The notes beneath the pieces were generated by a model. The model was not told where the DNA came from, made no database searches, and saw nothing but the letters and a program-made list of their open reading frames with translations. The position numbers and the translations under genes were made by a program. Shown here piece by piece: positions 1,103-64,000 of a stretch of DNA of 64,000 nt (its first letter is position 1; the number at the start of each line of letters is the position of its first letter). The DNA is from a virus, in the IMG/VR virus record IMGVR_UViG_3300031521_000011, positions 64,001 through 128,000 of that record. The stretch is one strand, 5' to 3'.

Positions 1103-1324
1103 TCAGTCTTGCACTCTTTTTAGTTTTGAAATTGCTGACGACAACAGATTCTCAGTAGTATAAAGAGGCAATCCAGCCTCATCTGATATTTTTTCGACAT
1201 CTGTGATTTTGTCACGATTGATTCCGAATACGATACAAATTACCTTTTTCTCTGCCTGTGTGAGCAAATCAAGATTTTTCATAACGGTTTCATATGGAAT
1301 ATCTATCTTGATTATCAACTGCAT
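1103..1324 (-). CDS. stand-alone sigma70 region-4-like HTH protein
   Basis: LDLLTQAEKKVICIVFGI...EKISDEAGLP...LLSSAISKLKR follows the sigma region-4 pattern; AGGAGG RBS. Confidence 0.7.
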   Translation of the reverse strand: MQLIIKIDIPYETVMKNLDLLTQAEKKVICIVFGINRDKITDVEKISDEAGLPLYTTENLLSSAISKLKRVQD

Positions 1325-1331
1325 TACCTCC

Positions 1332-1346
1332 TTTTCTTACTTATAC
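1332..1346 (-). promoter_or_regulatory. phage-specific motif copy 1 (GTATAAGTAAGAAAA)
   Basis: One of five GTATAAGWDAKAAAA copies; directly before the RBS of the 1324 gene. Confidence 0.7.
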
Positions 1347-1388: not shown

Positions 1389-3224
1389 GTGGCCTTCGTG
1401 AGTAAAAAAACCAAAGAATTCCTCGAAAAATACGCTGAAGAGGAATACCAGAGGATAAAAGAAGAAGAAGCTTTAAACCAGCAGGCGAATGAAGAAGCGC
1501 AAGCCATGGCTTCTAGTGCTGACGAGCAATACAGCGAATTGAAGTCAAAACGGGTCAATCAGAAATATGAAAACCAAAAGGACGGCAAGCCTCTTATGAG
1601 GAATGTTATCGTCCCTTCGATTTTTGCAGAAGCCACATATCTGCTGGACGGTAGGCCATTGCGGCTCAAAAATAGAAAATACTATCGCTTCATTCACGAT
1701 GCTGACATTACCAATGGCCTATTGAAGACGGCCCGCCAGGTTGAAAAGTCTACAACCTTTTCAGTTAAAATTGCAGACGATACGCTTCTCACGCCATTCG
1801 TTAGGAGTCTATATTATGCACCATTAAATGAACAGGTGAAGATGTTCTCCGAAGATAGACTCGGGCGCCTGTTTGTATATTCTCAGGCCGACGTTATCAA
1901 GAGAACATTCATCCGATCTGCAGACAAGCAGAATGTCTTCAATAAATCTTTCTCAAATGGATCATTGATATATCTTAGACACTGTTACGGCCTAGGCGAC
2001 AATATGCGTGGTCTTTCTGTCAACAACACATACGGAGATGAAATTCAGGATATTGATATCGATGCTATCCCTGTTGTCCAGGAGTGCCAGGCCCACGCAC
2101 ATGACCTAGGCCCCGGCATTATGTCCCGGTGGTTTGCCGGCACGCCAAAGACGTTCTCCAATACAATTCAGGAACTCTGGAATCGAAGCAATCAATGCGA
2201 GTGGATCATCCGCTGCCCGGCGTGTAACCGGGACCAGATTCTTGGATTAGAGAATATCACAGAGCATGCTTACCTATGCAGAAATTCAAAATGCAGAAAG
2301 CCGCTCACTGCTGAAATCATATCTGAGTTTGGACGTTGGTTCAAACTCAATGAATCTTCGGAGACATGGGGATTCCATATCAATCAGCTTATGTCTCCAG
2401 CCATGCCGGTGGAGGAAGTTTTTGCAAAGGTTAATACCTATGATAAGCAGAGGCTATTCAATGAGGTATTGGGTCTTAGTTATGAAAACGCAGAAAAGCC
2501 ATTCCCTCCGACATTACTTGCATATATTTCAGCAAATGATTTGAAAATGATGTCTCAGCCTCAAGGATATTTTAATAACGTTCCCATCTTTATGGGTGTT
2601 GACTGGGGCACTGGAGAGCGCTCCTACACAGTCGTTTATATTGGCGCATATAATAAGGAAGGGCAATGGCAACTTCTGTACACCCACAAGTATCACACTA
2701 AGGAAGAGAATGAGAGAGATTACCAGGTTCGCGACATTGCTCGCTTAATGACAATATTTCATGTCGGATATTGCATCGCTGACTATGGTCACGGCTTTCA
2801 GTCAAATCAGCAATTGAAGAATCTCTTTAAAGAGCGTTTTGATGCCATGTTCTATTCCAGTAGTCTTGGGCAACTCAGAATATATGATTCGCAGAAATCG
2901 CACTGGGTCGTCAACAGAACAAGAACCATTCATGAATACGTGACTGCCCATAAAGAAATGCGAGTTGTCTGGCCGGGTGCAAGCAAAGAGGAGATCGAAT
3001 TTCTTTATGAACACCATCTGGCTGAGCAGACGGAATATAAATCCATGCGTCCAAAAGCAGGACAAAATATCCTAATAACCAGAAGTGAAGAGATGTACTA
3101 CTCTCACCCTGCAAGTTCTCCGGATGATGGTATGCATGCTGGCGTGTATGCATATACGGCTTCTTTGATTAAGCCGGCCGGCGGCGCTTCACAATACGGT
3201 TTCGCCGGGGCCGTATCGAGGTAG
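1389..3224 (+). CDS. terL: terminase large subunit (gpA-like)
   Basis: Variant Walker A LLKTARQVEKST, Walker B GDEIQD, GTPK coupling motif, CPAC...CRNSKC Zn motif, RNase H-like nuclease MGVDWG...PDDGMHA. Confidence 0.9.
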   Translation: MAFVSKKTKEFLEKYAEEEYQRIKEEEALNQQANEEAQAMASSADEQYSELKSKRVNQKYENQKDGKPLMRNVIVPSIFAEATYLLDGRPLRLKNRKYYRFIHDADITNGLLKTARQVEKSTTFSVKIADDTLLTPFVRSLYYAPLNEQVKMFSEDRLGRLFVYSQADVIKRTFIRSADKQNVFNKSFSNGSLIYLRHCYGLGDNMRGLSVNNTYGDEIQDIDIDAIPVVQECQAHAHDLGPGIMSRWFAGTPKTFSNTIQELWNRSNQCEWIIRCPACNRDQILGLENITEHAYLCRNSKCRKPLTAEIISEFGRWFKLNESSETWGFHINQLMSPAMPVEEVFAKVNTYDKQRLFNEVLGLSYENAEKPFPPTLLAYISANDLKMMSQPQGYFNNVPIFMGVDWGTGERSYTVVYIGAYNKEGQWQLLYTHKYHTKEENERDYQVRDIARLMTIFHVGYCIADYGHGFQSNQQLKNLFKERFDAMFYSSSLGQLRIYDSQKSHWVVNRTRTIHEYVTAHKEMRVVWPGASKEEIEFLYEHHLAEQTEYKSMRPKAGQNILITRSEEMYYSHPASSPDDGMHAGVYAYTASLIKPAGGASQYGFAGAVSR

Positions 3225-7361: not shown

Positions 7362-7367
7362 GTTAGT

Positions 7368-7395
7368 TTGCAGTATACAATACTTATGTTATAAT
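7368..7395 (+). promoter_or_regulatory. sigmaA-type promoter with extended -10
   Basis: TTGCAG-16-TATAAT with TGn before the -10. Confidence 0.6.
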
Positions 7396-7645: not shown

Positions 7646-9493
7646 ATGAAGCATAGTATTAAAGACGAGGACATCATCAAGAAGTCCGTAGATGAACTCG
7701 AAACCGAATTCGGTTACAGGAACGCTGTTATCGATAAATATGCATTCGATATCACTATCAACCCAGCTACCATAATCGGTAATACGCTGGGTGGTTTAGT
7801 TGGTTCCTCAATTTCAGGCAAAATAAGGGCGAAGAATCAACTTCGCCAAAGTCTGGAAGAGAGTGGACCAGTAATAAGTATGGGGCGTGATCACGTTGAA
7901 GAGGTACAAAATATCTCAAACAACATTGAGATCATTTTTACCCCCATGAGTACACTGTATATGGTGAAACTGGGTACCAGGACTGTAACCCTGGACACCA
8001 TCAATACAGAAGAAATGGACGATGAAATGTACGACGCCTGGAGAAGGCGCGATGCGCAGTATTATAAAAATCTCATGCTGAACAAGATGATGTCTGAGAT
8101 GCAGCTTGTTGAGCAGATGTATGCCCGGCGCTTATTGCAAAAAAAGATGGATCTTGAGAATGCAATCAAGAAAAAGGCATCTGATGATTTTGAACCAGAA
8201 GAAACTGATTCAGAACTTGGAATCAACGAATTTTTCTCAGGCATCGTCTCTCTTAAGGAGGCTTGCGAGAAGAACAGCAAGATCACCGAGTTCTTGATGA
8301 AGGATGCTGATAACGAAGACGAAATGCTTCTCTCATGGGGATTGGATCGCCCGATTGCAAAGTACGCCGGTGCATTATCTGGTGCAATGCATTTCTTTGG
8401 AATGGATACATCCGCGCAAAAAATAAAGGATATCCAGAGCAAGTTTCTGAATCAGGACTATCTCTCAAAACATCTCAAAATTGTTTTCATGCCTGACCGG
8501 GTCATGTTTGTGGTCGATGATATAACGATGACCCAGATTTCCTCCTTAGATATGAACGAGGAGGGAATTAAGAATTTTAGGGAACAGAACCAGACGTATT
8601 TCCGCGCGATGTTCATGCAGCAAGCTAAAAAGGGCATTGCTGAACTAAAGCCCAAAATGGTCATCAGGAAAAAGGCATCACTCTCCGGTGACATATCCGA
8701 GATATTCAAAACCACCGAAGTTCACCCAATGATATATGCGAAGGTGCTTGATAAGAAATACAAGAACTGGACCAGTTACGATCCAGAGGTTCTTATCAGT
8801 GAAATCGAAAGAGACTTCGCCATTGAGGACACAGGCGTCAATGATCTCGTGCTGAACAAGATACTGACCATTCAGGCGCTGCGCAAAAGTGCAATGATGT
8901 TCAGCGATCCCTTATATTTTGAGAAATGTGTGCGCTCATTGACCGACAAGCCGGTTGATTTCGAGAGATGGCAGCCAGACAATACTGGTGAAGAAATCAT
9001 GTGGACACTCCAGATGATGGATTCGCTCACCCCGGGGCAGGATATCTTCGACAATCTCTCAGAAGATGTTGAGGATTATATCATCATGTGCCTGGTCAAC
9101 CAGGAATATCGGACGATGCTGGTAAAGCAGTCAATCATAAATTCAGAATACGAGCGCCAGTTCTTTGAAACTTTAAATGATGATCTTCTTTTAGAGTGGA
9201 ACAAGATGGGGTGCGAAAAAGCCATCAGCGACGCAGAAGTGGATGCCGTCACAGGCACGAATGAAAGCGTTATCGAAGTATCTAAAAAGGTGCTGCAGAT
9301 CATCCGTCAGAACAGCAAGATTGACTTCGCTGACGTTGGCTACATTGTGCAGCAGGCCGGGGACAAGGCGGGCCTGACCCAGATTATCATCAATGCCGTG
9401 AAAAAGAATGTACGGCTGAATCTCGGAGTCGATATGATGATCGATATGAATGATTCCGAGCTTCACGAGCAGACACAGTTATATAACCTGTAA
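7646..9493 (+). CDS. putative internal head protein with KxA motifs and an internal repeat
   Basis: Directly upstream of portal; KKKAS, LKEAC, MKDAD, AKYAG, RKKAS; repeat IEIIFTP...TEEMDDE / LKIVFMP...SLDMNEE. Confidence 0.55.
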   Translation: MKHSIKDEDIIKKSVDELETEFGYRNAVIDKYAFDITINPATIIGNTLGGLVGSSISGKIRAKNQLRQSLEESGPVISMGRDHVEEVQNISNNIEIIFTPMSTLYMVKLGTRTVTLDTINTEEMDDEMYDAWRRRDAQYYKNLMLNKMMSEMQLVEQMYARRLLQKKMDLENAIKKKASDDFEPEETDSELGINEFFSGIVSLKEACEKNSKITEFLMKDADNEDEMLLSWGLDRPIAKYAGALSGAMHFFGMDTSAQKIKDIQSKFLNQDYLSKHLKIVFMPDRVMFVVDDITMTQISSLDMNEEGIKNFREQNQTYFRAMFMQQAKKGIAELKPKMVIRKKASLSGDISEIFKTTEVHPMIYAKVLDKKYKNWTSYDPEVLISEIERDFAIEDTGVNDLVLNKILTIQALRKSAMMFSDPLYFEKCVRSLTDKPVDFERWQPDNTGEEIMWTLQMMDSLTPGQDIFDNLSEDVEDYIIMCLVNQEYRTMLVKQSIINSEYERQFFETLNDDLLLEWNKMGCEKAISDAEVDAVTGTNESVIEVSKKVLQIIRQNSKIDFADVGYIVQQAGDKAGLTQIIINAVKKNVRLNLGVDMMIDMNDSELHEQTQLYNL

Positions 9494-9507: not shown

Positions 9508-11829
9508 ATGGATGTTAAGGAACCAACATTTAGAGCAATGAGCATGAGGGAATTCTCAGCAATCGATCCTCAAGCAAAATCGATTGTGGATTCTTATGGT
9601 GTGGCTGTACCTAAGTCTGCCGCCAGAGAAGAAGAAGGCATGAGCAAGTTTGCCTCATTCCGTCAGAACCTGGTACAGGACCCATACCCATCGCCATTCC
9701 TAAATCTTTCCGATACTAAAATTCCGAACAAGATGTCAGAGTTGTTTGAGCTCTGCCGTTATTTCTATATGTTCGACCCACTCATCGCCGGCGCCATCAA
9801 TTCTTTGGCGACGTTCCCGGTGACAAACCTATATCTCGATGAGAGCAAGATGGCCGACAAGGCCAAGGTGGGCGCTGATGGAAAGAAGACTGGCGTTAAG
9901 GACGATAGTCCGCAGCTTAAAACATATAAAAAGACGCTGTTTGAAAACATCAACCTCAACAAGTTGCTGATTGAGATCGGCATAGATTATTGGTTGTATG
10001 GCAACTGCTTCATTTTCGGCGAGTTCTGGACCAACCCAGATACCAAACAGAAGGAATGGCGGCATGTCGTGAGACTCGATCCGAGTCGCATGATTATCGA
10101 CCATAACGAAGCCACCCGTGAAATCAAGTATAAATGGATGATCCCTGAGAAAATCAGGCGCATCGTTACAATGAAGAAACCCATGAGCGAGTATGAAAAG
10201 ATACCCGATCTGGTAAAGCGTGCTGTCACAAAGAACGAAGCGCTGGTTATCAACCCAAACAATATTTTCCATTTTAGCCGTCCGACGGACAGTATGGGAG
10301 ATACGGTTTGGGGTACGCCGGTAATTGCTAATGTCATGAAACTTCTGATGTACAGAAACGTCATGAGGCAGGCCCAAGAGGCTATCGCTCGGGAGCATAT
10401 CGTTCCTTTCCGCATATATTACTTCGAGAGAAACGCTCAATCCGATCCGATGGTCAACTGGGGCGGCGTCACAGCTGATTTTGCAGCCGAGTTGAACAAA
10501 TCCTCAAAAGACCCAAATTACAAGGTCATCTCCCCTCTGCCGGTTAATGTATTGAACTTGGGCGGCAATGGCCGGGCGCTGATGCTTACACCGGAAATCG
10601 AGCAGGTCCAGGGTGAGATTCTGGCCGGCATGAACGTACCTAGAGAATTTATCTTTGGTGGAGTTACATGGTCGGGCAGCAGCATCTCCCTGAAGATTCT
10701 CGAAAATCAATTTATAACCTATAGGTTATTAATACAGGGATTCTTGAATTTCCTTGTCAAGAATATGGCCAAGGTACGGAATGAATGGCATTCAGAGGAA
10801 GACAACGATGCAATTCCGTCTATCCATATGCAAGATTTGAAAATGCAGGATGACGTTCAGCAGAAGCAGCTCATCGTTCAGATGAACCAAGCTAACAAAC
10901 TTCCTGATGAGCAGCTCTATAAGGCTATGGACATGGATCCTGAAAAAATTGTCGCAGGTCTTGAGGCTGAGGCAATAAAGAGGATAGAGACAGATAAGAA
11001 AATGCAGATCCTCAGGATTGATGCAAATGAGGAAGTGCAGGAAGCAGATATTACCGCGCAAGTAAAACTAGCTCTCTTCAAGGAGAGATTGAGAATTAAG
11101 ATGTCTCAATCTACAGATGAGGTGGAGCGAAACGTTGCAATGCAGATGTTCGGTATGGGGGCAACTCCACAGCCACAAGTTGACGCAATGGGCAATCCGA
11201 TACCCGGACCGGTAGGGCCCGGGGGAGCGCCGGGAGCGCCGCCGGCAGGCCCGGGTGGAGCTCCGGGTACAGACCCAACAGCGCCGCCCGCCGGCCCTGG
11301 ACAACCAATGGCTCCTACGGTAGCAATGGCAGACGCCGGTGATGTTCAAGACCCTGCCGCTGGAAAAGATAAGGCAAATGTGCCGGACCAAATAGATTCT
11401 GTGAATGTCGGCGACACCAAAGATATTGATGCTGAGATTCAAAGAATCTCAGCCATGCCAGATAAGCAAAGAGCTGCAGCTTTAACTCAACTTCCAGCCG
11501 CGCAACAAAAGGCAATTGCAATGAGGATGGAAGCCATGAAAAGCCGCGAGAATTATGGCAAGGGATATGCAGATGCCCAAGCCCTCGCAGAGCGCATCGT
11601 AGCAATGCCTGAGCGTCAACAGGAGGCTGCGCTGAACACTATCCCTGTACAGATGAGGGATCGTGTCATGGTCTTTGTAGAGCAGCTACAGATGCAACAG
11701 CAGGATGACCAAAAGGCACAGCAAGTACAGCAAGGCCAGGCACAGCAAGGCCAGGGCCCGGCGACAGTTGATATGCGTCCAATGCCTGAACAAAAACCAC
11801 CTCGAAGGAAGAGTTTGAACGGAGGTTGA
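9508..11829 (+). CDS. portal protein with long Pro/Gly/Gln-rich C-terminal extension
   Basis: PLIAGAINSLATFP, DYWLYGNCF, LDPSRM, IFHF..., WGTP, ILAGMNVPREFIFGG are portal-like; head-module position. Confidence 0.85.
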   Translation: MDVKEPTFRAMSMREFSAIDPQAKSIVDSYGVAVPKSAAREEEGMSKFASFRQNLVQDPYPSPFLNLSDTKIPNKMSELFELCRYFYMFDPLIAGAINSLATFPVTNLYLDESKMADKAKVGADGKKTGVKDDSPQLKTYKKTLFENINLNKLLIEIGIDYWLYGNCFIFGEFWTNPDTKQKEWRHVVRLDPSRMIIDHNEATREIKYKWMIPEKIRRIVTMKKPMSEYEKIPDLVKRAVTKNEALVINPNNIFHFSRPTDSMGDTVWGTPVIANVMKLLMYRNVMRQAQEAIAREHIVPFRIYYFERNAQSDPMVNWGGVTADFAAELNKSSKDPNYKVISPLPVNVLNLGGNGRALMLTPEIEQVQGEILAGMNVPREFIFGGVTWSGSSISLKILENQFITYRLLIQGFLNFLVKNMAKVRNEWHSEEDNDAIPSIHMQDLKMQDDVQQKQLIVQMNQANKLPDEQLYKAMDMDPEKIVAGLEAEAIKRIETDKKMQILRIDANEEVQEADITAQVKLALFKERLRIKMSQSTDEVERNVAMQMFGMGATPQPQVDAMGNPIPGPVGPGGAPGAPPAGPGGAPGTDPTAPPAGPGQPMAPTVAMADAGDVQDPAAGKDKANVPDQIDSVNVGDTKDIDAEIQRISAMPDKQRAAALTQLPAAQQKAIAMRMEAMKSRENYGKGYADAQALAERIVAMPERQQEAALNTIPVQMRDRVMVFVEQLQMQQQDDQKAQQVQQGQAQQGQGPATVDMRPMPEQKPPRRKSLNGG

Positions 11830-11836
11830 GGCTATT

Positions 11837-12232
11837 ATGGCCAGCCGCTTCCCAAAAAAGAATATAGCGTCCTTCCTATTGCCGGGTGAGGCCGCAAATG
11901 CTGAAGCAATATTGAATAGTGGTAACTGCATAGTTACCACTATTCGTCCGTATGCGAGTTGTCCAGACACATCGGTTATGCTCTATATCGAGTATGACCA
12001 ACTGGTGGAAAATATCACAGAAAATGACCTTCAAATGAATGACAAAAAAAGAAGGGTTCAGTGTTTTAACCTTAACTGGGGTAATAACCTTGGGAATGTA
12101 GATAGAATACTGAACGATCCAGAATGTAACATCATTCATAAGAAGGAGTTTCCTTGTGCAAAGGGCTCGTTTATATTATTATATATGTATTGGGAAGAAC
12201 CCTTTGCAACAGATGATGTAGAACCTTTTTAG
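11837..12232 (+). CDS. hypothetical two-repeat protein immediately upstream of the RNA polymerase
   Basis: GGAGG/GAGG RBS; two similar ~55-aa halves (EAILNSGNCIV...LYIEYDQ / DRILNDPECNII...LYMYWEE). Confidence 0.65.
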   Translation: MASRFPKKNIASFLLPGEAANAEAILNSGNCIVTTIRPYASCPDTSVMLYIEYDQLVENITENDLQMNDKKRRVQCFNLNWGNNLGNVDRILNDPECNIIHKKEFPCAKGSFILLYMYWEEPFATDDVEPF

Positions 12233-12253: not shown

Positions 12254-15200
12254 ATGAATGAACAAGACAGAATAAGGCTGGACCGCGAAGCTTCTGAGAT
12301 GGAGTCCAAGGTCTTGGCGCTCGTCAAATCGAAGTTTCCAATGAAGCTTCAGGGCGGAATTCTGAATGTATCCGACCTGAAGATTGAGCGCCCGGCTGGT
12401 CTGTTTAATCTCACAGCTCAACATAATCTCAAGATGGACGACGGAAGCCTATACGGTGCTCTCCGTGGTCGCTTCAACTTGAGCAATGACAAGGGAAAAG
12501 TGATAAAGCAGACAAATGTGCAAGATATCATCAGCACAATTCCATACAAAACAGTCCGTGGCAGTTACATTGCCGGTGGAAATGAGCGCACAATCTCAGC
12601 TCAGATGCGCCAGGCACCCGGTATTTACACAGAGCGCAATGGAACTGAGGTCATAACCAAGATACGGTTTAATGCAACGAGTGAGTTATGGACCTCACCG
12701 ATCATGATGCATTATGATCAGTCGAAGTCCAAGTTCTTTCTGCGCTTTAAAATCGGAAATAAAACGCTCGATCTGAGCGGCATAACTTTCCTTACTGACA
12801 TCGCTGGCGCATCTATCGGTGAGGTCAAGAAAGCGCTTGGCTCCGAGGCGGTCTATATCGATGTTATGCAGAAGCATCCAACATTCAACGCTACGCTGGC
12901 TGATGTTTATGCCTTATATTTCAAGGATGAGAAGTATGACGGAACAGCCGAGCAGGTTGTGAAACTGCGCGACAGGATCATGGAGCAACCCAACTTTGGC
13001 AACTCTGGCGAAAAAAGAGTCGGAGCTACAGTCGGTGTTGCCTCCAATAAACTTGATAAAAATGTTGTATTGGCTTCAATCACTAAGCTATTTGCCGTAG
13101 CAAGAAATGATGCAGAAGAAGATTCTATCGACGATCTTCGCTTCAAGATCGTACTCAATGACCAGGACTTCATCCTGGGAGAACTGAGCGAAGGCATCGA
13201 CGAGTTTAAGAACAAGGTAAACTTCAGGAGCGGCGCAGACAACGAATTGAAGTTCATCGTTGCTTCTCCGCTTGATAATCTGGACAAGAAGATTGACAGG
13301 TTCATCAAAGCCGATACTAGAAATGCCCCTCAGTCCACCGGTATCGTGGAGGCCCCGGAGACAACAAACCCATTGAATCTGATTTCCTCCACGAAAAAGA
13401 TCACACAAAAGGGCGAGGGTGGCATCTCTGACGAGGCAGCCCGGAACGCTGACAGCGCCAGAAACCTTCAGCCCACTGCCATTACCCGCATCGACCCAGT
13501 TGAATCTCCTGAATCTCAGAAGATTGGATTGGTCCGCCAGCTCGCGCGAAACGCACGGGCTACGAATGGCACAATCGTATCGAAATTCTTTCCAGTAAAA
13601 AAGGGAACTGCCAACATTGATGAAGAGAATATTGTAGAGCTTGATCCGTTTGAGGAATATGACCATCATGTGGCTTTCTATACGCCATCTGAGATCACCA
13701 AGATCAATAACATGATTGCGTTTAAGAAGCCTCTGGTGACAGGCCGATTCAATGGAAAAGTTATGCAAATTCCGAGGGAAGAGATTGAGTATATCGATAC
13801 TTCCCCGAGTGACATCTTTGGCATCTCTGCTGCCCTGGTTCCGTTCGGTGACCACAACGACGGTAACCGTATGTTGATGGCCACAAATCAGCAAAAGCAA
13901 TCTCTGCTGCTGAAGAGCTCAGTGCGCCAGGCTCCCTATGTCCAGGTAGCCATAGATCAAGACAAGAAACAAACATTTGAAGGCCAAATTGGCGAAAACT
14001 CAAACGTTGTGCGTTCTCCTGAGAACGGCGTCGTTGAGTCAGTCGATGGCGGCCATATTGTAATTAAGGGCGAAAGCGGCAAAAGACATTCGCTTGATTA
14101 CTATGACCACTTTCCGATGAACCAGGATAATTTCGCTCATAACGAAGTTCTAGTGAAGCGCGGGGACGAGGTAAAGGCCGGCCAAATGGTGGCTGAAGGA
14201 TGGCACACTAAGGATGGCAAGCTTGCCCTTGGTCTCAATGCCCGTATCGCATATCTACCATATAAGGGTTGGAACTATGAAGACGGCGTGGTTATAAGCC
14301 GCGAATTCGCCGACAGGGTTCAGACTGATGAAATGGAATCCCGCGACATCATAGTATACAAGGATTTCATTGGCGGCCCAGGGAGCGGAGTCAGGGATAA
14401 ATTCATAGAAACTACAGCACAAAGCGCCGGCATGCAGAAGTTGGATAAGGATGGAATCATTATGCCTGGGCAAGAAGTTGGCCCCGGAGACATCCTTGTT
14501 GCCATGCTGAAGCCTAAGGCTCCGGACTATGACGCAATGCGTTCATTCTCCAAGATGATCATGAAGGGCGACGAAACCGAGTTTGAGGATGCCGCACAAA
14601 AAATCGGTGATGGCGAGTACATGCAGGGTAAAGTACTCGATGTACATGTGCTGCCCGGCGGCGGAGATCCCGATGTAAGAAATATAATCCGCATCCGTGT
14701 GAAAATGTCAAAGACACTCAAAATCGGAGATAAAATTTCTGGCCGTCACGGAAACAAAGGAACTATTACCAAAATACTTGGAACGAAGGAAATGCCTCAC
14801 ACTGAAGACGGGCGCTCAATTGACGTCCTGTTTTCTCCGCTGGTTGTTCCTTCTCGTAAAAATGTTGGCCAGCTTCTGGAAGTCAATGCTGGCTTAATTG
14901 CTGAGAAGACAGGTAAGCCATACACTGTTTACAATTTCGATCCAAAAGAAGTGGACAATGTCAAAAACGGGCTTATCAAAATCGGAGTACCAGACGGCAA
15001 AATGGCAGTAATCGATCCTAAAACTGGCAAGGCCTACGAGAACAAAGTCACTGTCGGAAATATGTATATACTGAAACTAAAGCACAAGGTTGATGAAAAA
15101 TTACAATCTCGCTCTTTTGAAGAAGGCGGATTCAACCAGAAATACCTGTCTCCAGAGAAATCCACCGGAGAGGCTGCAGGTGAAAAGGCCAACCCACAGC

Positions 15201-18200
15201 GCCTTGGTGAGATGGAGATGAGGGTGCTGCAGGCCAATCAGGTACCATTCAATATCCTTGAAACCACCACCCTTAAAGGTGATGGCGCTGGCTTTGCAAA
15301 GGATCGCCTTGATATCTTCAGGGCTATGATCAACGGCAGTCCAGAGCATCTCAATAAACTGCGGGACAAGTCCGGCGTACCGGAGTCCTTACGCATCCTG
15401 AAGGACAAGATGTTCGTTATGGGTATGGACGTTAAACCTCTCAATAGGGGCAAAACGGTTCATTCATTGAACGATACATTTAGTGAGCTGATGGTCCTTC
15501 CAACAAGGGATGAAGACATCCTGCGTACAATCGGAAAGAGCAAACGCGTTTATAGTTCAGAGACCTTCCAGTCCACAGACAGGCGGCACGAGAAGTCTGA
15601 TAAGGCTGTACCTGGCGGACTGTATGATCCGGACATCTTCGGAAAAGATGAAGACACGAAGAATGGCCAGGTTGCACGTGAAGCCAGGAGTAAATGGGGC
15701 TACATCGAGCTGGCTACCTATATGCCAAATCCTGTATTGATAGAACAGGCTCAGTATAATCCATATGCATCACTTCTCGGGATGGGTAAGGATAAACTCT
15801 TAAGCCTGATGTCAAAAGACTATGTACTCATCACAAACCCCGGCGATAGCGGTCTTGGTGCAAACACAATCGTTTCTTCAAAGTTAGCTACAGACCTTAT
15901 GATGAATGAGGACAAGCACTTTGAATACAAGGCTGGCGGAGAAGCCTTGATGTATCTTCTGTCAAAGATCAATGTGAACAAGGAACTTGTGGCTACCGAG
16001 GCTGCATTGAAAGCCGCGAAGCTCGACAAAAAAGATGCACTCTTTAAGAAATATTCAGTGCTCAAGATGCTGCAAAAGAACAACATGCAGCCCGGCGACC
16101 TGATGACAAAGATTGTTCCTGTCACACCAAAATACCTGCGCCCGCGCAATGCTCAGGGGCAACAGGTTATAGAGAATGGTCTGACTAAGGTCTACAGTAA
16201 CCTGGTTGATGTAAATGAAAACTCGCGCCTAGCCTTTGAGTCTGGTACGCCAGATATCAAGGCAGAACAAAGCAATGGCCTCTATCGTTCCATGAAATAT
16301 CTCTATGGCGGATTTAAAAATGATCGCTATGTTGATAAAAAGAAAAAGGAAGAATTGGGCGGCATCCTTGATCTCATCGGAAACAAAGAGGGCTTGGTTC
16401 GCGATAAGATGCTGGGCAAGCGCGTTGACTACTCTGGCCGCGCCGTAATCGGTGTCGATCCCACATTGAAGATCGATGAGATTGGTATCCCGGCTGACAT
16501 CGCAAAGACCACTTACAAGCCATTTATCATTAAAGAACTAATCCATCGCGGATATGTTCCAATGGGCGCTGATGGAGAGCGTATGGCGAGGGAAAAGATT
16601 CTTCGATTTGATGACGATGTCAAAAAAGTTCTCGATGACATTGTCAAAGATCGCCCAATCCTCGTAAACCGTGCGCCATCACTTCATAAGTTCGGCATAC
16701 AGGCTATGCGTCCGGTCATTCGCACGACGCAGGATGGACAAGTCGTCAGGAATATCCAACTTAACCCCATGGTCGTAACCGGCTTTGGCGCTGACTTTGA
16801 TGGAGACCAGATGGGTGTGCACGTTCCGCTGAGCGACAAGGCCGTCGAAGAAGCCAGAAACATGATGATGCCCAGCGATAATCTTATTAATCCAACCAAC
16901 GGCAAGATGATCCTTGAAATCCGTCATGAGATGACATTGGGTATATACTACCTGACAATGAATCCAGAACAGACAACTGGAAAGAACATCACCTACTCTA
17001 CATATAAACAGCTTCGCGCAGACTACGAATCCGGCAAGATCAAAACCCGTCAGGCTGTTACCCTTAATGGCAAAATGACCACGGCCGGTCAATGGCTGTT
17101 CTTTGGAATACCAGGGCTCCAGGCAAAGTATCGTAACAAGTATTTCGGACAGACAATGAGCGACAAGTCCCTGAAGGACATGCTACGCGAGATCTATGAC
17201 GACATTACATTTGGCCGCAATGAGACGATGGGCACAATTGATCTATCAAATCTGATGGATAACATCAAGGACCTTGGATTCATGGCATCTACTCGCTCCG
17301 GTCTTAGCATCGGAATCAAAGATCTGGAGTTCCCAGAGAAGTATCAGGATGATATTTTTGAAAGGGCTAGAAAGATCGATGAGCGCCTGAAGGGCGATGA
17401 GGCGGGACTCATTGGCGCATACCAAACACTGGAAGGTGAAGTTGAGAGCGAGCTCAAGGCTGGTGCCATGGGTAAGGATAATCCCGTTACTGCCATGCTG
17501 CAGTCTGGTGCCAGGGGCGACGCCGGCCAGATTCGCCGTATGGGTGGCCTTGTTGGTGTTGGCCGTGATATTGAAAATCATGCAGTCACACCAATTAGAT
17601 CTTCGCATATGACCGGCCTCTCTCCGGGTGAGTACTGGTTGCACAGCTACGACTCCCTGAAGGGCATGGCTGACCGCGCACTGAATACAGAAGCACCAGG
17701 CACGCTTACCAGGGAGCTCTGGTCCGCATATCAAGACAAGGTTATCTCAGAACCGGACTGTCATACAACAAAAGGAATCCTCATCAACAAGGAAGGCAAA
17801 ATTGTCGGACGCTATGCATCAAAAGACATTACAAGCGCCGATGGATCCATAACATACGTGAAGGCTGGACAACCAATCACACAGATAACGCAAACCGCTA
17901 TCGGCAGAGACAAGACCATCAAGTTTATCCAGATCCGCTCACCAGCCACCTGCGCAACCGTCAATGGTCTGTGCCAGAAGTGCTATGGCTGGGAGACCGG
18001 AAGGCCACAACCCCCGAAGCTTGGATACCCAGCCGGCGTTATTGCATCTCAGGCCATCGGCGAGCCGGTGACGCAGATGACGATGAAGACATTCCATGGC
18101 GGCGGCACGTCGTCCAACGTTACGCTTGGCCTGCCCAGAATCCTTGAGATGCTGCACCCTGAGTCATCCAACCTCAACAATATAGCGGTTCTGTCAAAGA

Positions 18201-19144
18201 ATACCGGCAGAGTTGAAGAGATTAAGGATACCGTCAGCGGCACTGATGTTGTTATTGGCAAAAAGAAATACCATATTCCGTTCGATGAGAACGGCAACCG
18301 TAAGCCATTAAGGGTAGTGGTTGGAGATAGTGTTGTTCAGGGTCAGTTCCTTACTGTAGGAAATCTTGATGACCTTGACGCTGCTCGTAAGGACAAGACA
18401 ATGACATCCATTACCAGCGCCCGCCCGGTAGAGATTATGAACTTCGCACCTGATAAGGAAGAAGGACTCAATCAGGCGCAGAATTACATGATTGGCGGCA
18501 TGCAGTACGCAATCGATACCTCCCTGAATAAACAGGACGCTGTTGACCGCCGCCACATCGAGCTGACAGTCGGAAAGCTCACAGAGAATGTCAAAATTAG
18601 CGACTCTGGCGACTCTCCATACATGGATGGCCAAGAAGTCAAACGCAACGTAGCTGACCGTTGGAATGCTGATAATGTGACAATGTCCATCGCCAAACTC
18701 ACGCCAACAGCCAGCATGGATAAGCTTCTTGGAGCTATTGCAGGTGAAACCGTCAAAGATAGAAGCGGACAGATACTTGTAAAGCAAGGTCAGAAGATTA
18801 CCAGAGATATGCTCGGCCCAATCATGCTGGCGACCAGAAACATCAAAGTTACGCCGAGGCCGATCATTTATGTGGCCGAGATGGATTCTCCACAGACGGC
18901 AGCCGATAAGGGCCATGATAACTGGTTCAGCAACCTTGGCCACCAAAACATCGGTAAGCAGCTCTCCAGGGGCGTATCATTCGGTCAAGTGGATAAGCTC
19001 GAAGACCCGCGTGCCCGCATGATGGCCGGCAAGCTCAGTAATATTGGTCAAGAGGGCCATAACTGGTGGGAGAAGTTCAAGAACGGCACAAGCGATTTCG
19101 CAAACACAATCAGTAACAGTCTTCTGGGAATGTTTCAGAAGTAG
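12254..19144 (+). CDS. rpoBC: DNA-directed RNA polymerase, fused beta-beta' single polypeptide (2296 aa)
   Basis: Beta motifs GSYIAGGNER, RIDPVESPE..KIGL, HNDGNRMLMATNQQKQ, GWNYEDG, GDKISGRHGNKG, KLKHKV, QRLGEME, PES. Beta' motifs GGLYDPDIFG, WGYIEL, GKRVDYSGRAVI, NRAPSLH, catalytic GADFDGD (16787-16807), SGARG, C..RSPATC...CQKCYG, QAIGEPVTQMTMKTFH, GLPR. Confidence 0.95.
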   Translation: MNEQDRIRLDREASEMESKVLALVKSKFPMKLQGGILNVSDLKIERPAGLFNLTAQHNLKMDDGSLYGALRGRFNLSNDKGKVIKQTNVQDIISTIPYKTVRGSYIAGGNERTISAQMRQAPGIYTERNGTEVITKIRFNATSELWTSPIMMHYDQSKSKFFLRFKIGNKTLDLSGITFLTDIAGASIGEVKKALGSEAVYIDVMQKHPTFNATLADVYALYFKDEKYDGTAEQVVKLRDRIMEQPNFGNSGEKRVGATVGVASNKLDKNVVLASITKLFAVARNDAEEDSIDDLRFKIVLNDQDFILGELSEGIDEFKNKVNFRSGADNELKFIVASPLDNLDKKIDRFIKADTRNAPQSTGIVEAPETTNPLNLISSTKKITQKGEGGISDEAARNADSARNLQPTAITRIDPVESPESQKIGLVRQLARNARATNGTIVSKFFPVKKGTANIDEENIVELDPFEEYDHHVAFYTPSEITKINNMIAFKKPLVTGRFNGKVMQIPREEIEYIDTSPSDIFGISAALVPFGDHNDGNRMLMATNQQKQSLLLKSSVRQAPYVQVAIDQDKKQTFEGQIGENSNVVRSPENGVVESVDGGHIVIKGESGKRHSLDYYDHFPMNQDNFAHNEVLVKRGDEVKAGQMVAEGWHTKDGKLALGLNARIAYLPYKGWNYEDGVVISREFADRVQTDEMESRDIIVYKDFIGGPGSGVRDKFIETTAQSAGMQKLDKDGIIMPGQEVGPGDILVAMLKPKAPDYDAMRSFSKMIMKGDETEFEDAAQKIGDGEYMQGKVLDVHVLPGGGDPDVRNIIRIRVKMSKTLKIGDKISGRHGNKGTITKILGTKEMPHTEDGRSIDVLFSPLVVPSRKNVGQLLEVNAGLIAEKTGKPYTVYNFDPKEVDNVKNGLIKIGVPDGKMAVIDPKTGKAYENKVTVGNMYILKLKHKVDEKLQSRSFEEGGFNQKYLSPEKSTGEAAGEKANPQRLGEMEMRVLQANQVPFNILETTTLKGDGAGFAKDRLDIFRAMINGSPEHLNKLRDKSGVPESLRILKDKMFVMGMDVKPLNRGKTVHSLNDTFSELMVLPTRDEDILRTIGKSKRVYSSETFQSTDRRHEKSDKAVPGGLYDPDIFGKDEDTKNGQVAREARSKWGYIELATYMPNPVLIEQAQYNPYASLLGMGKDKLLSLMSKDYVLITNPGDSGLGANTIVSSKLATDLMMNEDKHFEYKAGGEALMYLLSKINVNKELVATEAALKAAKLDKKDALFKKYSVLKMLQKNNMQPGDLMTKIVPVTPKYLRPRNAQGQQVIENGLTKVYSNLVDVNENSRLAFESGTPDIKAEQSNGLYRSMKYLYGGFKNDRYVDKKKKEELGGILDLIGNKEGLVRDKMLGKRVDYSGRAVIGVDPTLKIDEIGIPADIAKTTYKPFIIKELIHRGYVPMGADGERMAREKILRFDDDVKKVLDDIVKDRPILVNRAPSLHKFGIQAMRPVIRTTQDGQVVRNIQLNPMVVTGFGADFDGDQMGVHVPLSDKAVEEARNMMMPSDNLINPTNGKMILEIRHEMTLGIYYLTMNPEQTTGKNITYSTYKQLRADYESGKIKTRQAVTLNGKMTTAGQWLFFGIPGLQAKYRNKYFGQTMSDKSLKDMLREIYDDITFGRNETMGTIDLSNLMDNIKDLGFMASTRSGLSIGIKDLEFPEKYQDDIFERARKIDERLKGDEAGLIGAYQTLEGEVESELKAGAMGKDNPVTAMLQSGARGDAGQIRRMGGLVGVGRDIENHAVTPIRSSHMTGLSPGEYWLHSYDSLKGMADRALNTEAPGTLTRELWSAYQDKVISEPDCHTTKGILINKEGKIVGRYASKDITSADGSITYVKAGQPITQITQTAIGRDKTIKFIQIRSPATCATVNGLCQKCYGWETGRPQPPKLGYPAGVIASQAIGEPVTQMTMKTFHGGGTSSNVTLGLPRILEMLHPESSNLNNIAVLSKNTGRVEEIKDTVSGTDVVIGKKKYHIPFDENGNRKPLRVVVGDSVVQGQFLTVGNLDDLDAARKDKTMTSITSARPVEIMNFAPDKEEGLNQAQNYMIGGMQYAIDTSLNKQDAVDRRHIELTVGKLTENVKISDSGDSPYMDGQEVKRNVADRWNADNVTMSIAKLTPTASMDKLLGAIAGETVKDRSGQILVKQGQKITRDMLGPIMLATRNIKVTPRPIIYVAEMDSPQTAADKGHDNWFSNLGHQNIGKQLSRGVSFGQVDKLEDPRARMMAGKLSNIGQEGHNWWEKFKNGTSDFANTISNSLLGMFQK

Positions 19145-19374: not shown

Positions 19375-19671
19375 ATGGACAAGGTGGTAAACAATAAGAA
19401 CGATCTTATCCGAGAGGTGGCCGCCTCTACAGGGATCTCCATCCGCCAGGCGGAAGAGATCATCAATACGTTTCTTGGTATGATGCAACAGAAGGTCTTA
19501 GCTGGACAGGCGATTTCAATCAAAGGTTTCTTTGGCATGAGGTATCTCCGGGCAAGATCCAAAGCTGTTCGTGACTTCGAGAATGGAATTCAGAAGCAAT
19601 CAGGAGATCATCTCCGCCCAAAATGTAAATTCAGTGAAAGTTTTGTGCAAAAAATAAAGGAAAAAGGGTGA
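19375..19671 (+). CDS. HU/IHF-family DNA-binding protein (divergent)
   Basis: NKNDLIREVAASTGIS...ISIKGFF...RPKCKFS matches the HU/IHF fold. Confidence 0.8.
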   Translation: MDKVVNNKNDLIREVAASTGISIRQAEEIINTFLGMMQQKVLAGQAISIKGFFGMRYLRARSKAVRDFENGIQKQSGDHLRPKCKFSESFVQKIKEKG

Positions 19672-23842: not shown

Positions 23843-24124
23843 TTATTTCAGCAAATCTTTAAAAGGTTTGCTGGGTTTGAATGCCGGCGATTGATGAGCG
23901 GGGACGTTGATTTTTTCTCCAGTATGAGGGTTCCGGCTGTCACGCGCTTTTCTTTCGGCGCCTCTGAATGTGCCCAACCCGGCCAAGGTTACAATGTCGC
24001 CTGACTTAACATGACTCTGTATTGCATCATCGGTTGCCTTGAATACATCTTTGACACAAGCTTGAGAAAATCCTGTCTTGTCAGCAACCTCCTTCGCAAG
24101 GTCTGCGCTGCTGATCTTTTCCAT
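23843..24124 (-). CDS. hup: HU histone-like DNA-binding protein
   Basis: GLGTF...RKARDSRNPHTGEKINVPA...PAFKPSK; start MEKISS with AGGAGGT RBS. Confidence 0.9.
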   Translation of the reverse strand: MEKISSADLAKEVADKTGFSQACVKDVFKATDDAIQSHVKSGDIVTLAGLGTFRGAERKARDSRNPHTGEKINVPAHQSPAFKPSKPFKDLLK

Positions 24125-24165
24125 ATACTCACCTCCTTTACTAAATATAAATGCTTCCGGAAGCA

Positions 24166-24180
24166 TTTTATTTCTTATAC
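24166..24180 (-). promoter_or_regulatory. phage-specific motif copy 2 (GTATAAGAAATAAAA)
   Basis: Upstream of HU, followed by the palindrome AAATGCTTCCGGAAGCATTT. Confidence 0.7.
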
Positions 24181-24232
24181 GAAATGTGAAAAAAACTCCA
24201 TATTTTCCTATTTTAAACAACACATATGTCAA

Positions 24233-24667: not shown

Positions 24668-24682
24668 TTTTATTACTTATAC
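24668..24682 (-). promoter_or_regulatory. phage-specific motif copy 3 (GTATAAGTAATAAAA)
   Basis: Upstream of the AbrB-like gene. Confidence 0.7.
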
Positions 24683-25379: not shown

Positions 25380-25394
25380 TTTTATCACTTATAC
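25380..25394 (-). promoter_or_regulatory. phage-specific motif copy 4 (GTATAAGTGATAAAA)
   Basis: Intergenic, upstream of the 25342 gene. Confidence 0.65.
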
Positions 25395-26745: not shown

Positions 26746-26760
26746 TTTTATATCTTATAC
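26746..26760 (-). promoter_or_regulatory. phage-specific motif copy 5 (GTATAAGATATAAAA)
   Basis: Upstream of the first gene of the - strand block. Confidence 0.7.
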
Positions 26761-26786: not shown

Positions 26787-27210
26787 TCTCTTGGCACGAT
26801 ACCCCCCTCTCTTGGCAGCAAAAGTGCCTCTCTTGGCAGCAAAAGTGCCTCTCTTGGCAGACTCTTGGCAGACAAATAATTTTGAAACTTTTAAAGCAAA
26901 AGGCTGTACGTGCCATTAGGACTAGCTTCTATATATATATAATATAATATAATAATAATATATAGTATACTATAGAGTGTTTCTGCCAACAGTTTTACCG
27001 GAAAAGGTATGGGGGGGTATATTTTTATTTTTTTTAATATTTTTTTTCATTTCAAAAAAAAAATATTTATCCCCCCGGTACCTTTTCTGAGAATTTCGTG
27101 TCTCTTGGCAGAGAAATACCCTCAAACCCGCATGAATCCTCACTTTACCAGTTTTTGCCTGTGCCAAGAGAGGGGGGTATCGTGCCAAGAGAGGGGCATG
27201 TCGTGCCAAC
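26787..27210. repeat. putative replication origin: iterons, 31-bp inverted repeat and AT-rich core
   Basis: CTCTTGGCA at 26788, 26809, 26830, 26851 (21-bp period), 26862 and 27102; inverted copies at 27162, 27183 (partial 27204); perfect 31-bp inverted repeat 26787-26817/27162-27192; near-pure A/T tract ~26930-26974. Confidence 0.7.
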
Positions 27211-50136: not shown

Positions 50137-50979
50137 ATGCACTACAAAGAATATGAGATCGAAAAATTGGCATTGGCCAAAAAAAAATACGACACAGATA
50201 AGGAAAAGGATCTAATAAAGAGATACAAGGATACTAAGGATCCTTTTCTTTTTACTAAAATTCTCTATGAATTCAAGCCTGTAATAGACACGGCCATTCG
50301 CAAGTCTGGAAATCAGGATGTTGGGGATTCTGCTGCAGTTAGAGGCCGGGCATATGAGGCCGTGAAGAGCGCGGTTGAGAGTTATAATCCCAATATGAAC
50401 CGCAAGCCAAGCAGTCACATTCATGATACGATCTACTATGCCCTTAAGAAGGCTGGATATCGTGCACAGAACGAAGCTCGTATGGGCGAGCAGGACACAA
50501 TTGACAGTGGGTATATAAACATCGCAGAAAATGTTCTGAAAAGAGAACACACTCCGATCAATACTGTCTCAATTTTAAATGAAGTCACGAAAATGAAGGG
50601 CAGCAAGGGCTTAAAGAAGATTACCACAGACCAGATCGAGAGAGTAAAGGGCATGCAGCGCCGCAGCCTATCTGGGGGAAGAATTGTCTCTGGAGAAGGA
50701 GAAGATATTCGGCTTGAGGATATTTTCAACACCGGTGGAACACGCACTACGGATATCGTCGAGGATGAATACGACAAGGACATTGTGCAGGGATTCCTTG
50801 CCAGACTCTCTCCTACAGAACGCGGTGTTGTCAAAGATAGACATGGCCTTGGGCCAAATACTCAGCCTGAGATGTCATGGAACTATGTTGCGCTGAATAA
50901 TAATCTGTCAAGTTCCTACATGGCGAAGAGGGTCTATGCAGATGCAATTCGCAAACTTAAAGATATGAGGCGTACATAA
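50137..50979 (+). CDS. RNA polymerase sigma70-family factor
   Basis: Region 2-like (AYEAVKSAVESYNP...KPSS...) and region 4-like (LSPTERGVV...GL...MSW..VA...AIRKLK); AAGGAGG RBS. Confidence 0.75.
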   Translation: MHYKEYEIEKLALAKKKYDTDKEKDLIKRYKDTKDPFLFTKILYEFKPVIDTAIRKSGNQDVGDSAAVRGRAYEAVKSAVESYNPNMNRKPSSHIHDTIYYALKKAGYRAQNEARMGEQDTIDSGYINIAENVLKREHTPINTVSILNEVTKMKGSKGLKKITTDQIERVKGMQRRSLSGGRIVSGEGEDIRLEDIFNTGGTRTTDIVEDEYDKDIVQGFLARLSPTERGVVKDRHGLGPNTQPEMSWNYVALNNNLSSSYMAKRVYADAIRKLKDMRRT

Positions 50980-62477: not shown

Positions 62478-62533
62478 TTGAAAACTGGCGCACTGAAAGA
62501 TTATTAGGTATACTTAGATTCGGGGTGATAATT

Positions 62534-64000
62534 ATGGCTTTCGTAACGGCTGGCGTTAAAATCTACGCCACCAACTATAATAGAGTAAAGGGCAGAATAG
62601 CAGCTGAGTTAGCTCGGCGTGGATTGACATCCACATTGAGAAGCAATGTTACCGCTGGAATAAAGATGCTGGCAACTGATATGTCTAGCCTTCAAACCAA
62701 TATTAATAAGATTGCCACGCACTATTCTTCGCTTATGGCGGCTGGTACTAAAATCAGAGCTTCTGACTATAATAACCTGGATGACCAAGTGCAGGCGCAT
62801 GTCAACTTTGATATTTATTCGCTGGTCGCCACGGATTGCGCCTCAAGCTGTACCGGTGGATGCTATACCGCCTGCTCAGCAAGCTGTAAAAATACGTGTA
62901 CCGGTAACTGCTCAACGTCCTGTAGCGGAGCGTGTGGTGTTGTCTGCACCGCTTCATGTGGTGGCTGTGGCGCAGGCTGTTGGAGTACCTGCGCGGCGGG
63001 ATGCGCTGGCTGTAGCGGCACCTGCAATGGATGCACTGGACAATGCTCATCAACATGCAAAACGGCATGCGCCGGCTGTGGAACGAGTTGCGTGACGGCA
63101 TGCAGCACCGGATGCAATGGATGCACCGGGCACTGTAATGGATGCACTGGTCAATGTTCCGCCAAATGCGCTACTGTATGCGCAAGCTGCTCTGGACAGT
63201 GTAGCAGCGCATGCGCCGGTGGATGTCATGGATGCTCAGGACAGTGCGATACAGACTGCACAGGGGCCTGTACCGGGCGTTGTCTTACCGTATGCGGTGT
63301 ATGTGCCTCTAGCTGCTCAAGCGCTTGTAAGGGCTGCAGTGGGTGTTCTACGTCATGCGGATCTAACTGCTCGACGAACTGTGGTACAGATTGTGCTGGT
63401 GGATGCAATACCAACTGCACTGGCTCATGTACTTCGACCTGTTCTATAGCGTGCTATAGTGTTTGCGGGGGCTGCTCTAACGGATGCGCCAGCTGTACTG
63501 GAGGATGTCAGGGTGCCTGTAAGGGATGCGATACGACGTGTAGCACAGGATGCAGTGGGGCCTGTAAGGGGTCATGCAACAACGGCTGCACTGGTTGTGA
63601 TACAGTATGTACAGGCGGCTGTAAGGGATGCAGTGCATGTGGAAATGGAAGCTGCTCTCAATCATGCGGAATCGCGTGTTCGTCCTGCAAGGGTGCATGC
63701 ACTGGTTGCTCAACCGGATGTTCTACAAGTTGTAATGCCGCATGCACTACTGGTTGCGGAAGTACCTGTGATAATAACTGCGCCAGTGATTGTGAAGGTG
63801 GATGCACCGGTACCTGTAATGGCTGTTCTACCACATGCACCGGCGGATGTTCAACCGCCTGTACGGCTTGTGGTGGAAATTGCGATAATAACTGCGCCAG
63901 TAATTGCGAGGGTGGATGCACCGGTGGATGCACGGCATGCAATACTACATGCAGCAGTGGGTGTAAGGCAACCTGTAAAGATGCATGCGGCGGATGTGCG
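62534..64000 (+). CDS. giant Cys-rich CxxxC/CxxC-repeat protein, partial (runs off the window; not in the ORF track)
   Basis: GGGGTGA RBS and ATG 62534; open for 489 codons; 101-aa Cys-free N-terminus, then about 100 Cys (DCASSCTGGCYTACSASC...CKATCKDACGGCA). Confidence 0.9.
   Translation, partial: MAFVTAGVKIYATNYNRVKGRIAAELARRGLTSTLRSNVTAGIKMLATDMSSLQTNINKIATHYSSLMAAGTKIRASDYNNLDDQVQAHVNFDIYSLVATDCASSCTGGCYTACSASCKNTCTGNCSTSCSGACGVVCTASCGGCGAGCWSTCAAGCAGCSGTCNGCTGQCSSTCKTACAGCGTSCVTACSTGCNGCTGHCNGCTGQCSAKCATVCASCSGQCSSACAGGCHGCSGQCDTDCTGACTGRCLTVCGVCASSCSSACKGCSGCSTSCGSNCSTNCGTDCAGGCNTNCTGSCTSTCSIACYSVCGGCSNGCASCTGGCQGACKGCDTTCSTGCSGACKGSCNNGCTGCDTVCTGGCKGCSACGNGSCSQSCGIACSSCKGACTGCSTGCSTSCNAACTTGCGSTCDNNCASDCEGGCTGTCNGCSTTCTGGCSTACTACGGNCDNNCASNCEGGCTGGCTACNTTCSSGCKATCKDACGGCA

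Follow-up and report, generated by a model that had tools for sequence, protein, structure and literature searches.

We analyzed a window of 64,000 nucleotides (bases 64001-128000 of the 168,244-bp virus record IMGVR_UViG_3300031521_000011, rated 100% complete) and found that one intact open reading frame (ORF), at 12254-19144, encodes a cellular-type two-barrel RNA polymerase (RNAP) with beta and beta' in a single chain of 2296 aa, carrying two double-psi barrels, the DxDGD loop and the two catalytic lysines. On sequence grounds, the gene belongs to a large clade of phage RNAPs made up of its close fused homologues and a sister group in which the cultured phages Arash and D69 are found. By analogy with Arash, we consider it probable that this ORF provides the catalytic core of a holoenzyme that would be delivered with the virion for early transcription, together with a cognate factor of the sigma70 family.

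The beta-beta' chain and its conserved residues

The ORF, which is preceded by a GGGAGG ribosome-binding site and matches its neighboring genes in GC content, contains the Pfam domains Rpb2_3 and Rpb2_6 followed by Rpb1_1, 2, 3, 4 and 5. The alignment to Salmonella RpoB and RpoC covered both subunits nearly end to end, and lacked the SI1, SI2 and SI3 insertions; identity to bacterial subunits was about 30%. Domain order and alignment bear out a previous inspection of the letters alone (the sequence-only reading), which had seen beta followed by beta' in one ORF. The beta part ends near aa 1064 and the beta' part starts near aa 1076, and the junction lies where it had been placed, with PESL starting at nt 15380 and FSELMVLP ending at 15502 (Table 1). 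Contigs of three other runs crossed this junction without gaps. An AlphaFold model of aa 560-1700 (predicted local distance difference test, pLDDT, 86.9; predicted template modeling score, pTM, 0.78) was confident across the junction, and its best structure matches were bacterial beta' chains.

The chain has counterparts of the bacterial residues K1065, K1073 and H1237 in beta (K827, K835 and H944, respectively) and of R425, D460, D462, D464, Q929, M932 and H936 in beta'. This catalytic set is invariant in 38 relatives and intact here, from which we infer that the protein could synthesize RNA. The GDKISGRHGNKG and NRAPSLH motifs were found at 14726-14761 and 16667-16687. The GADFDGD loop, to which the sequence-only reading had drawn attention, is present, but its glycine is not special: the position, equivalent to N458 (which we take to act in the selection of ribonucleoside triphosphates), is occupied by N in 95% and by G in 4% of close relatives, and G is present in 12% of sister-group members and 1% of bacteria. 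Since the N-to-G change is sporadic across these groups, we rejected the loop as a hallmark of the family. The equivalent of R780 in the bridge helix (aa 1802) is Leu, at a position where Arg is found in 97-100% of all groups. At the T786 equivalent, most members of the fused clade have Arg or Lys.

The GLYDPDIFG (15617-15643) and WGYIEL (15695-15712) motifs are spaced by 17 residues and, therefore, the beta' N-terminal Zn ribbon is gone, as had been read; its cysteines C70, C72, C85 and C88 are absent. This loss, however, is common to the whole fused clade and to the mReC phages, and is not a peculiarity of this gene. Among the elements thought to be kept, the second Zn site and the trigger loop are, and the flap tip is present as a helix in the model, but with only 3 of 15 bacterial-invariant residues and with the bacterial motif lost. 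The cysteines of the second Zn site are also lost in approximately 12-14% of the sister group (L024, L037, L052 and other loci). Near the beta' C-terminus, an insertion (aa ~2140-2205, window ~18670-18870) that is absent from Salmonella RpoC and present in the close family resembles a second copy of the aa 1850-1895 module.

Bacterial-invariant residues were retained at 52 of 80 positions in the beta' barrel and at 5 of 34 in the clamp coiled coil, the sigma-binding element. Judged from the alignment, the residues by which host sigma70 is bound are no longer present in the phage core. With regard to alpha, a role in binding is presumably played by D1084. In Escherichia coli, beta touches alpha R45 with G1215 and R1216 (PMC13202282); the former, 96% conserved in bacteria, is mostly proline in the clade, and the latter is not retained (K, E or T). 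We found neither an alpha nor an omega gene in the genome, and it is known that alpha-free cores can function, as in the RNAPs of jumbo phages (PMC7598289). The fusion of beta to beta', along with the loss of alpha-contact residues, suggests that the core would assemble without host alpha or omega, and we are inclined to regard the enzyme as independent of host alpha, with somewhat better than even confidence. The equivalents of the rifampicin pocket are altered as well (Q513E, D516E, H526S, R529K and S531T), which predicts early transcription resistant to rifampicin. One relative (G001) encodes a stand-alone protein similar to the alpha C-terminal domain (G001:C1:64904-65197, L187) behind a promoter of the GTATAAG type described below.

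Relatives and known polymerases

A search over 5.8 billion proteins yielded 76 fused homologues with 31-70% identity, mostly of 2215-2340 aa, and a second tier near 2010-2160 aa. Viral contigs gave matches with an alignment query and none in a pattern scan based on a single protein. The close family was not among the GTDB genome matches listed nor among PLSDB plasmids, where only cellular rpoBC appeared. Relatives retain the order terminase, WYL-like gene, 620-aa gene, portal, small gene and RNAP, usually with a DinG helicase downstream. The IMG/VR loci displayed two layouts, one beta-first and fused (in some cases with the C-terminal half of beta' split off) and the other with separate beta' and beta genes, in that order; L066, which has the latter, is a contig of the published mReC set. 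Among cultured phages, Salmonella phage Arash and Vibrio phages D69, D148 and D181 have the portal, the small gene and a beta-beta'N fusion, and the Arash/D69-group portals are the best matches to this portal among deposited phages. The window gene at 7646 showed no similarity to Arash gp218. Inteins or LAGLIDADG insertions were observed in members P0027, P0076, P0089, P0096, P0116 and P0120, several of them directly after DFDGD.

In an unrooted IQ-TREE analysis (posterior mean site frequency model, 46 phage and bacterial taxa, 21 bacteria among them, 1093 columns), the query family (100) and the Arash group (100) formed one clade (99% in the Shimodaira-Hasegawa-like approximate likelihood ratio test), apart from the mReC rows, L066 included, and from the 21 bacteria (100). 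A clade with Bacillota was rejected (approximately unbiased test, p-AU 2e-35). The long phage branch joins beside the Patescibacteria rows, and there may be long-branch attraction among the phage rows. Considering the unrooted tree, the long branch and this adjacency, the RNAP may derive from an ancient capture from bacteria; a recent one is excluded.

Arash gp206 and gp216, with the sigma factor gp10 (OQ632216; PMC10585845), belong to the clade of the present RNAP, as do the D69, D148 and D181 proteins, and the portal, small gene and RNAP follow the same order. As in the phage studied here, in Arash and D69 beta is fused to the N-terminal half of beta', there is no Zn ribbon, and an orthologous sigma is encoded in the tail operon; moreover, Arash has GTATAAG before non-structural genes, and its structural and non-structural genes are on opposite strands. 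However, beta' is split in Arash and D69 (~1525 plus 607 aa) and Arash has a second sigma, whereas here we found one chain and one full sigma. The Arash paper reports detection in virions alone, with no analysis of the fusion, promoter or biochemistry (PMC10585845), and in a literature search, weak on subscription journals, we found neither the fused form nor its sigma or promoter described.

The mReC RNAPs (PMC7481178) are also alignable, bacterial-like beta and beta' of tailed phages that lack the Zn ribbon and stand outside the sampled bacteria. YerA41/GN1 and Carin-5 have a layout similar to mReC, and the RNAP subunits and a sigma of YerA41 are particle-associated (PMC7354516). In contrast to the fused gene and PF05876 terminase found here, mReC is characterized by separate genes, beta' then beta, Gp23-type capsids (PF07068) and a PF03237 terminase, and mReC-like genomes are devoid of the gp10-type sigma. 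On this comparison, the phage RNAP is not a member of mReC, although the two may be kin at a deeper level of the tree. Helicobacter, Wolbachia and some Patescibacteria likewise read through from beta to beta' in one chain; unlike the phage protein, these fused RpoBC are cellular, retain the Zn ribbon and the residues that contact alpha and sigma70, and group with bacteria. The phage and bacterial fusions are, most likely, independent. Records P0078, P0080, P0081 and P0083-P0087 are cellular-type fused RpoBC of 2240-2340 aa; one is named Patescibacteria, and P0081 also has GADFDGD.

The virion RNAPs of phiKZ and AR9 (PMC7598289, PMC13282480) resemble what we deduce here from genes alone in being virion-borne, two-barrel early enzymes that dispense with alpha and omega and use an AT-rich promoter near -10. 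They differ in having at least five chains, a far greater divergence, a second, non-virion RNAP and no recognizable sigma70-family factor. PF00623 had a single match in this genome, which is hence not provided with phiKZ/AR9-type paralogous sets. By analogy, the phage RNAP would work like a virion RNAP without being of that class. The RNAP of crAss-like phages is not alignable to COG0085/0086 (PMC7481178). Both crAss-like gp66 and the P23-45 enzyme are single-chain virion RNAPs for early genes, as proposed here, and the program of coliphage N4 is similar, with a virion RNAP for early genes that is T7-like. N4 and phi14:2 leave their late genes to the host RNAP. We know of no co-packaged sigma70-family factor used by the crAss, P23-45 or N4 RNAPs and, to our knowledge, the two-barrel RNAPs characterized from virions (phiKZ/AR9, crAss, P23-45) all diverge strongly and make no use of a recognizable factor of this family.

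Probable virion association, sigma factor and promoters

In the Arash virion proteome, gp206 ranked first (3516 spectra, 128 peptides), and gp216 (1210 spectra, 40 peptides) and the sigma gp10 (467 spectra, 24 peptides) were also found; the second sigma, gp196, and the small-gene product gp205 are not in the table (PMC10585845). Although spectral counts are only a rough measure, the values per residue were 2.3 for gp206, 2.0 for gp216 and 2.0 for gp10, with 1.5 for the portal and 4.3 for the capsid. Most replication enzymes in that table have 2-11 peptides.

The orthologue of gp10 in the window is the product of the gene at 50137. Its match to the sigma70 family is weak, but its best Arash match is gp10 and both genes follow that of a tail cell-wall hydrolase. 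A profile of the sister-group sigmas had this protein as its sole match in the genome (E=3e-17). All of 12 other sister-group genomes encode a gp10-type sigma, on the same strand as the RNAP, and none of five mReC-like genomes does; G001 also encodes one. A complex model of the sigma with RNAP aa 690-1400 scored 0.81 and the best of three controls 0.00, the mark being one reached by 58 of 80 solved pairs and 2 of 110 mismatched pairs. The model runs shared at least 87% of contacts, with a partner pLDDT of at least 79, and placed sigma residues 61-77 on the clamp helices (aa 1316-1346), with the flap tip (aa 761-772) included in the interface. Since similar bacterial holoenzymes have been solved, this result may reflect likeness or memory. 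Taken together, the protein is likely the cognate sigma of the fused RNAP.

The minus strand contains all 31 sites of a 15-bp motif, GTATAAGnnATAAAA (at no more than two mismatches), against an expectation of 0-1, and no -35 is conserved. This strand carries DNA polymerase III alpha, primase, helicase, ligase and tRNAs; some sites are in the replication region, and 27 of the 31 precede a ribosome-binding site and an ORF, compared to 14% at random. De novo counting on the non-structural strand gave the GTATAAG core as the top motif in both G001 and Arash. The Arash version is GGTATAAGTAAnGTGTA; the core is shared but the 3' halves differ, and none of G001, Arash and D69 contains the 15-bp pattern in its exact form. 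The core was also found in L006, L007 and L200 and is not enriched in mReC; relatives that share it, Arash included, probably have hosts in different phyla. Conversely, sigmaA-like sites precede a ribosome-binding site and an ORF in 12 of 20 cases on the structural plus strand versus 3 of 17 on the minus strand. The location of RNAP and sigma in late-type operons, and of the likely promoters before genes needed first, fits delivery with the virion.

Thus, the RNAP, sigma and 15-bp promoter that the sequence-only reading had assembled into one injected system gain indirect support from the Arash virion orthologues of the RNAP chains and sigma, the strand-specific motif before non-structural genes and its core in Arash. 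Two smaller proteins also proposed as RNAP components do not. The 73-aa sigma4-like protein (1103-1324) has a weak match (E=0.006) and lies behind an early motif, and is rather a candidate regulator of late promoters. The 11837 protein, considered as a possible substitute for alpha and whose Arash counterpart gp205 is the one missing from the virion table, had no family hit in domain searches, and its best fold matches (Z 5.8) were generic ferredoxin-like half domains, with no alpha/Rpb11 chain among the top ones.

We propose that host sigmaA-type promoters, of which the sequences are seen, would express the portal-RNAP run and the tail operon with the sigma late in infection, and that the single-chain core and the sigma would be loaded into the particle and injected, as suggested by the detection in purified Arash virions. 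In a new host, the clamp coiled coil and the flap tip would be the sites at which the core binds its own sigma, as modeled; assembled without host alpha or omega, the core would read GTATAAGnnATAAAA as an element extending from -10 to the start site with no -35. The replication and takeover genes of the minus strand, where the sites are positioned, would then be transcribed. The complete picture of a two-protein holoenzyme, alpha- and omega-free, lacking the Zn ribbon, injected with the virion and served by a -10-only GTATAAG promoter conserved across host phyla, is put forward tentatively, with slightly less than even confidence.

Several observations weigh against the delivery of such a holoenzyme with the virion. 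Arash is in the sister group, is approximately 27% identical and has a split beta', and a chain of 260 kDa has to be unfolded for its passage through portal and tail. GTATAAG is strand-biased in some sister-group genomes but the exact core is not enriched in several others, nor clearly in D69, de novo counting gave no clear motif in D69 or G003, and the Priestia flank showed no early-type site. The two rare active-site-proximal changes of this copy, N458G and R780L, are also unfavorable. Furthermore, non-structural enzymes are among the 116 proteins of the Arash table, and the Arash authors themselves admit the possibility of carry-over (PMC10585845), and the sigmaA-like promoter at 7367-7395, heading the RNAP gene run, could fire early. 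These last two points would be accounted for if host sigmaA transcribed the portal-RNAP operon at once, the newly made RNAP and sigma read GTATAAG as middle promoters, and the Arash detection were carry-over. Such a non-virion enzyme requires, however, that the portal and the sigma-bearing tail operon be expressed before the replication genes, and it does not agree with the near-equal recovery of gp206, gp216 and gp10 per residue, the absence of gp196 and the few peptides of most replication enzymes. We therefore regard it as unlikely.

It could also be argued that the 50137 sigma, being of the sigma70 family, takes over the host core for GTATAAG promoters, in the manner of T4 or SPO1, and that the fused RNAP serves other genes or needs host alpha and host sigma. 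The complex model cannot separate phage from host core, and some polymerase must read the sigmaA-like promoters of the structural genes. Yet in all 13 genomes tested the fused RNAP is accompanied by the sigma (gp10 or 50137), which 5 of 5 mReC-like genomes lack, the residues that bind host sigma70 are lost from the phage core, and the promoter core is common across host phyla, so that we find this explanation quite improbable. As for the possibility that a host rpoBC was recently captured, or that the gene is decaying or a product of chimeric assembly, the identity of about 30% to bacterial subunits, the N458G and R780L changes and the fused rpoBC of ~2250 aa in Patescibacteria-like records could be invoked. 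Against these stand the 76 fused homologues with conserved synteny, the junction bridged in three runs, which rejects a chimera, the GC like that of neighbors, the retention of all catalytic residues and the rejected Bacillota clade, which settles the check by phylogeny against a recent capture from that phylum. An origin of this kind is hardly credible. The virion-delivered holoenzyme is, in our opinion, the probable explanation.

Genomic setting and significance

Table 1. Coordinates of the RNAP, its elements and associated features in the window.
Feature	Position	Strand	Evidence or remarks
Single-chain beta-beta' RNAP, one intact 2296-aa ORF	12254..19144	+	76 full-length fused homologues, 31-70% identity
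Beta moiety, aa 1-1064: protrusion, minimal lobe, flap, double-psi barrel; no SI1/SI2	12254..15445	+	Salmonella alignment
Beta-beta' junction, ~11-residue linker, length similar across family	15380..15502	+	High-confidence model; bridged by contigs of runs X2, X3, X4
Site of absent beta' Zn ribbon, 17-aa loop, low pLDDT	15617..15712	+	
Catalytic loop GADFDGD (D1514, D1516, D1518); G in place of N458; R425 equivalent retained	16787..16807	+	
Second Zn site, C1836/C1900/C1907/C1910	17759..17983	+	The four cysteines are all those of the protein
Trigger loop core QMTMKTFH (Q929, M932, F935, H936 equivalents retained; no SI3)	18074..18097	+	
73-aa sigma4-like helix-turn-helix protein	1103..1324	-	Pfam Sigma70_r4 E=0.006, below cut-off; behind early motif
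GTATAAG-type phage promoter (putative), before 73-aa sigma4-like gene	1332..1346	-	
Terminase large subunit (GpA type, PF05876)	1389..3224	+	Same clade
Host sigmaA-like promoter, TTTGCA-17-TATAAT with extended TG	7367..7395	+	Heads the 7418-7646-portal-11837-RNAP gene run
Portal protein	9508..11829	+	Portal homologues near RNAP gene across fused clade
131-aa protein, two beta-alpha-beta-beta repeats (DUF4177-like), between portal and RNAP	11837..12232	+	Similar small genes in several relatives
GTATAAGnnATAAAA phage promoter (putative), before HU gene	24166..24180	-	
GTATAAGnnATAAAA phage promoter (putative), before AbrB-like gene	24668..24682	-	
GTATAAGnnATAAAA phage promoter (putative)	25380..25394	-	
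GTATAAGnnATAAAA phage promoter (putative)	26746..26760	-	
Divergent sigma70-family factor, tail/baseplate operon, orthologue of Arash gp10	50137..50979	+	Likely cognate sigma

The phage is uncultured. Its RNAP region was found in peat metagenomes, with more than half of the RNAP-region words in four runs, and there was no RNA run among those listed with the region. The terminase, portal, capsid, sheath and baseplate genes, on the plus strand, indicate a myovirus; the major capsid protein had no Pfam hit and matches phrog_2522. The host is likely a member of the Bacillota because of the strong GGAGG ribosome-binding sites, the sigmaA-like promoters, an AbrB-like gene and the relatives in Priestia megaterium and Paraclostridium assemblies. 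Several P. megaterium isolate assemblies (L005 and cluster members) hold 174-180 kb contigs with this RNAP, and the head module is the same as here in the one contig examined; these contigs possibly represent a carrier state or phage-plasmid, and also a cultured source.

Other features of the genome were observed. Outside the window there is a eukaryote-like poly(ADP-ribose) polymerase gene with WGR, regulatory and catalytic domains (E=3e-24; L223:1188-2573, minus strand, genome 56188-57573), directly downstream of which lies a GTATAAG-type site. Iteron-like CCTCTCTTGGCA repeats in both orientations form two clusters at gene-strand switches (window 26806-27194 and genome 13203-13585) and may serve as replication origins or as signals for genome ends. 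The tail-fibre module ends (window 62525-64000 and genome 128230-131396) with a long Cys-rich ORF that has CxxxC repeats and, after it, a large enzyme-like gene. Of two HU-like genes (window 19375-19671, plus strand, and 23843-24232, minus strand), one is behind a sigmaA-like promoter and the other behind the phage motif. Short N-terminal leaders (MEKISMEKIA; MDKVAxYKEAIYK) are common to unrelated plus-strand proteins (genome 16887, 19983, 21350, 40859, 41208, 41724 and 43665) and are candidate capsid-loading signals; the RNAP N-terminus carries neither.

The fused-RNAP clade represents a large phage lineage that was not described by the mReC survey. Its RNAP aligns end to end with bacterial RpoBC and yet appears without alpha, omega and Zn ribbon, and would therefore be a natural minimal model for studying the need for alpha and the Zn ribbon, as well as the way in which an RNAP of this size can be packaged, delivered by injection and folded again. 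Experiments are possible at present because there is a cultured relative, Arash, a predicted promoter consensus and cognate sigma, and a core encoded by a single gene, and the system may provide an orthogonal two-component transcription system.

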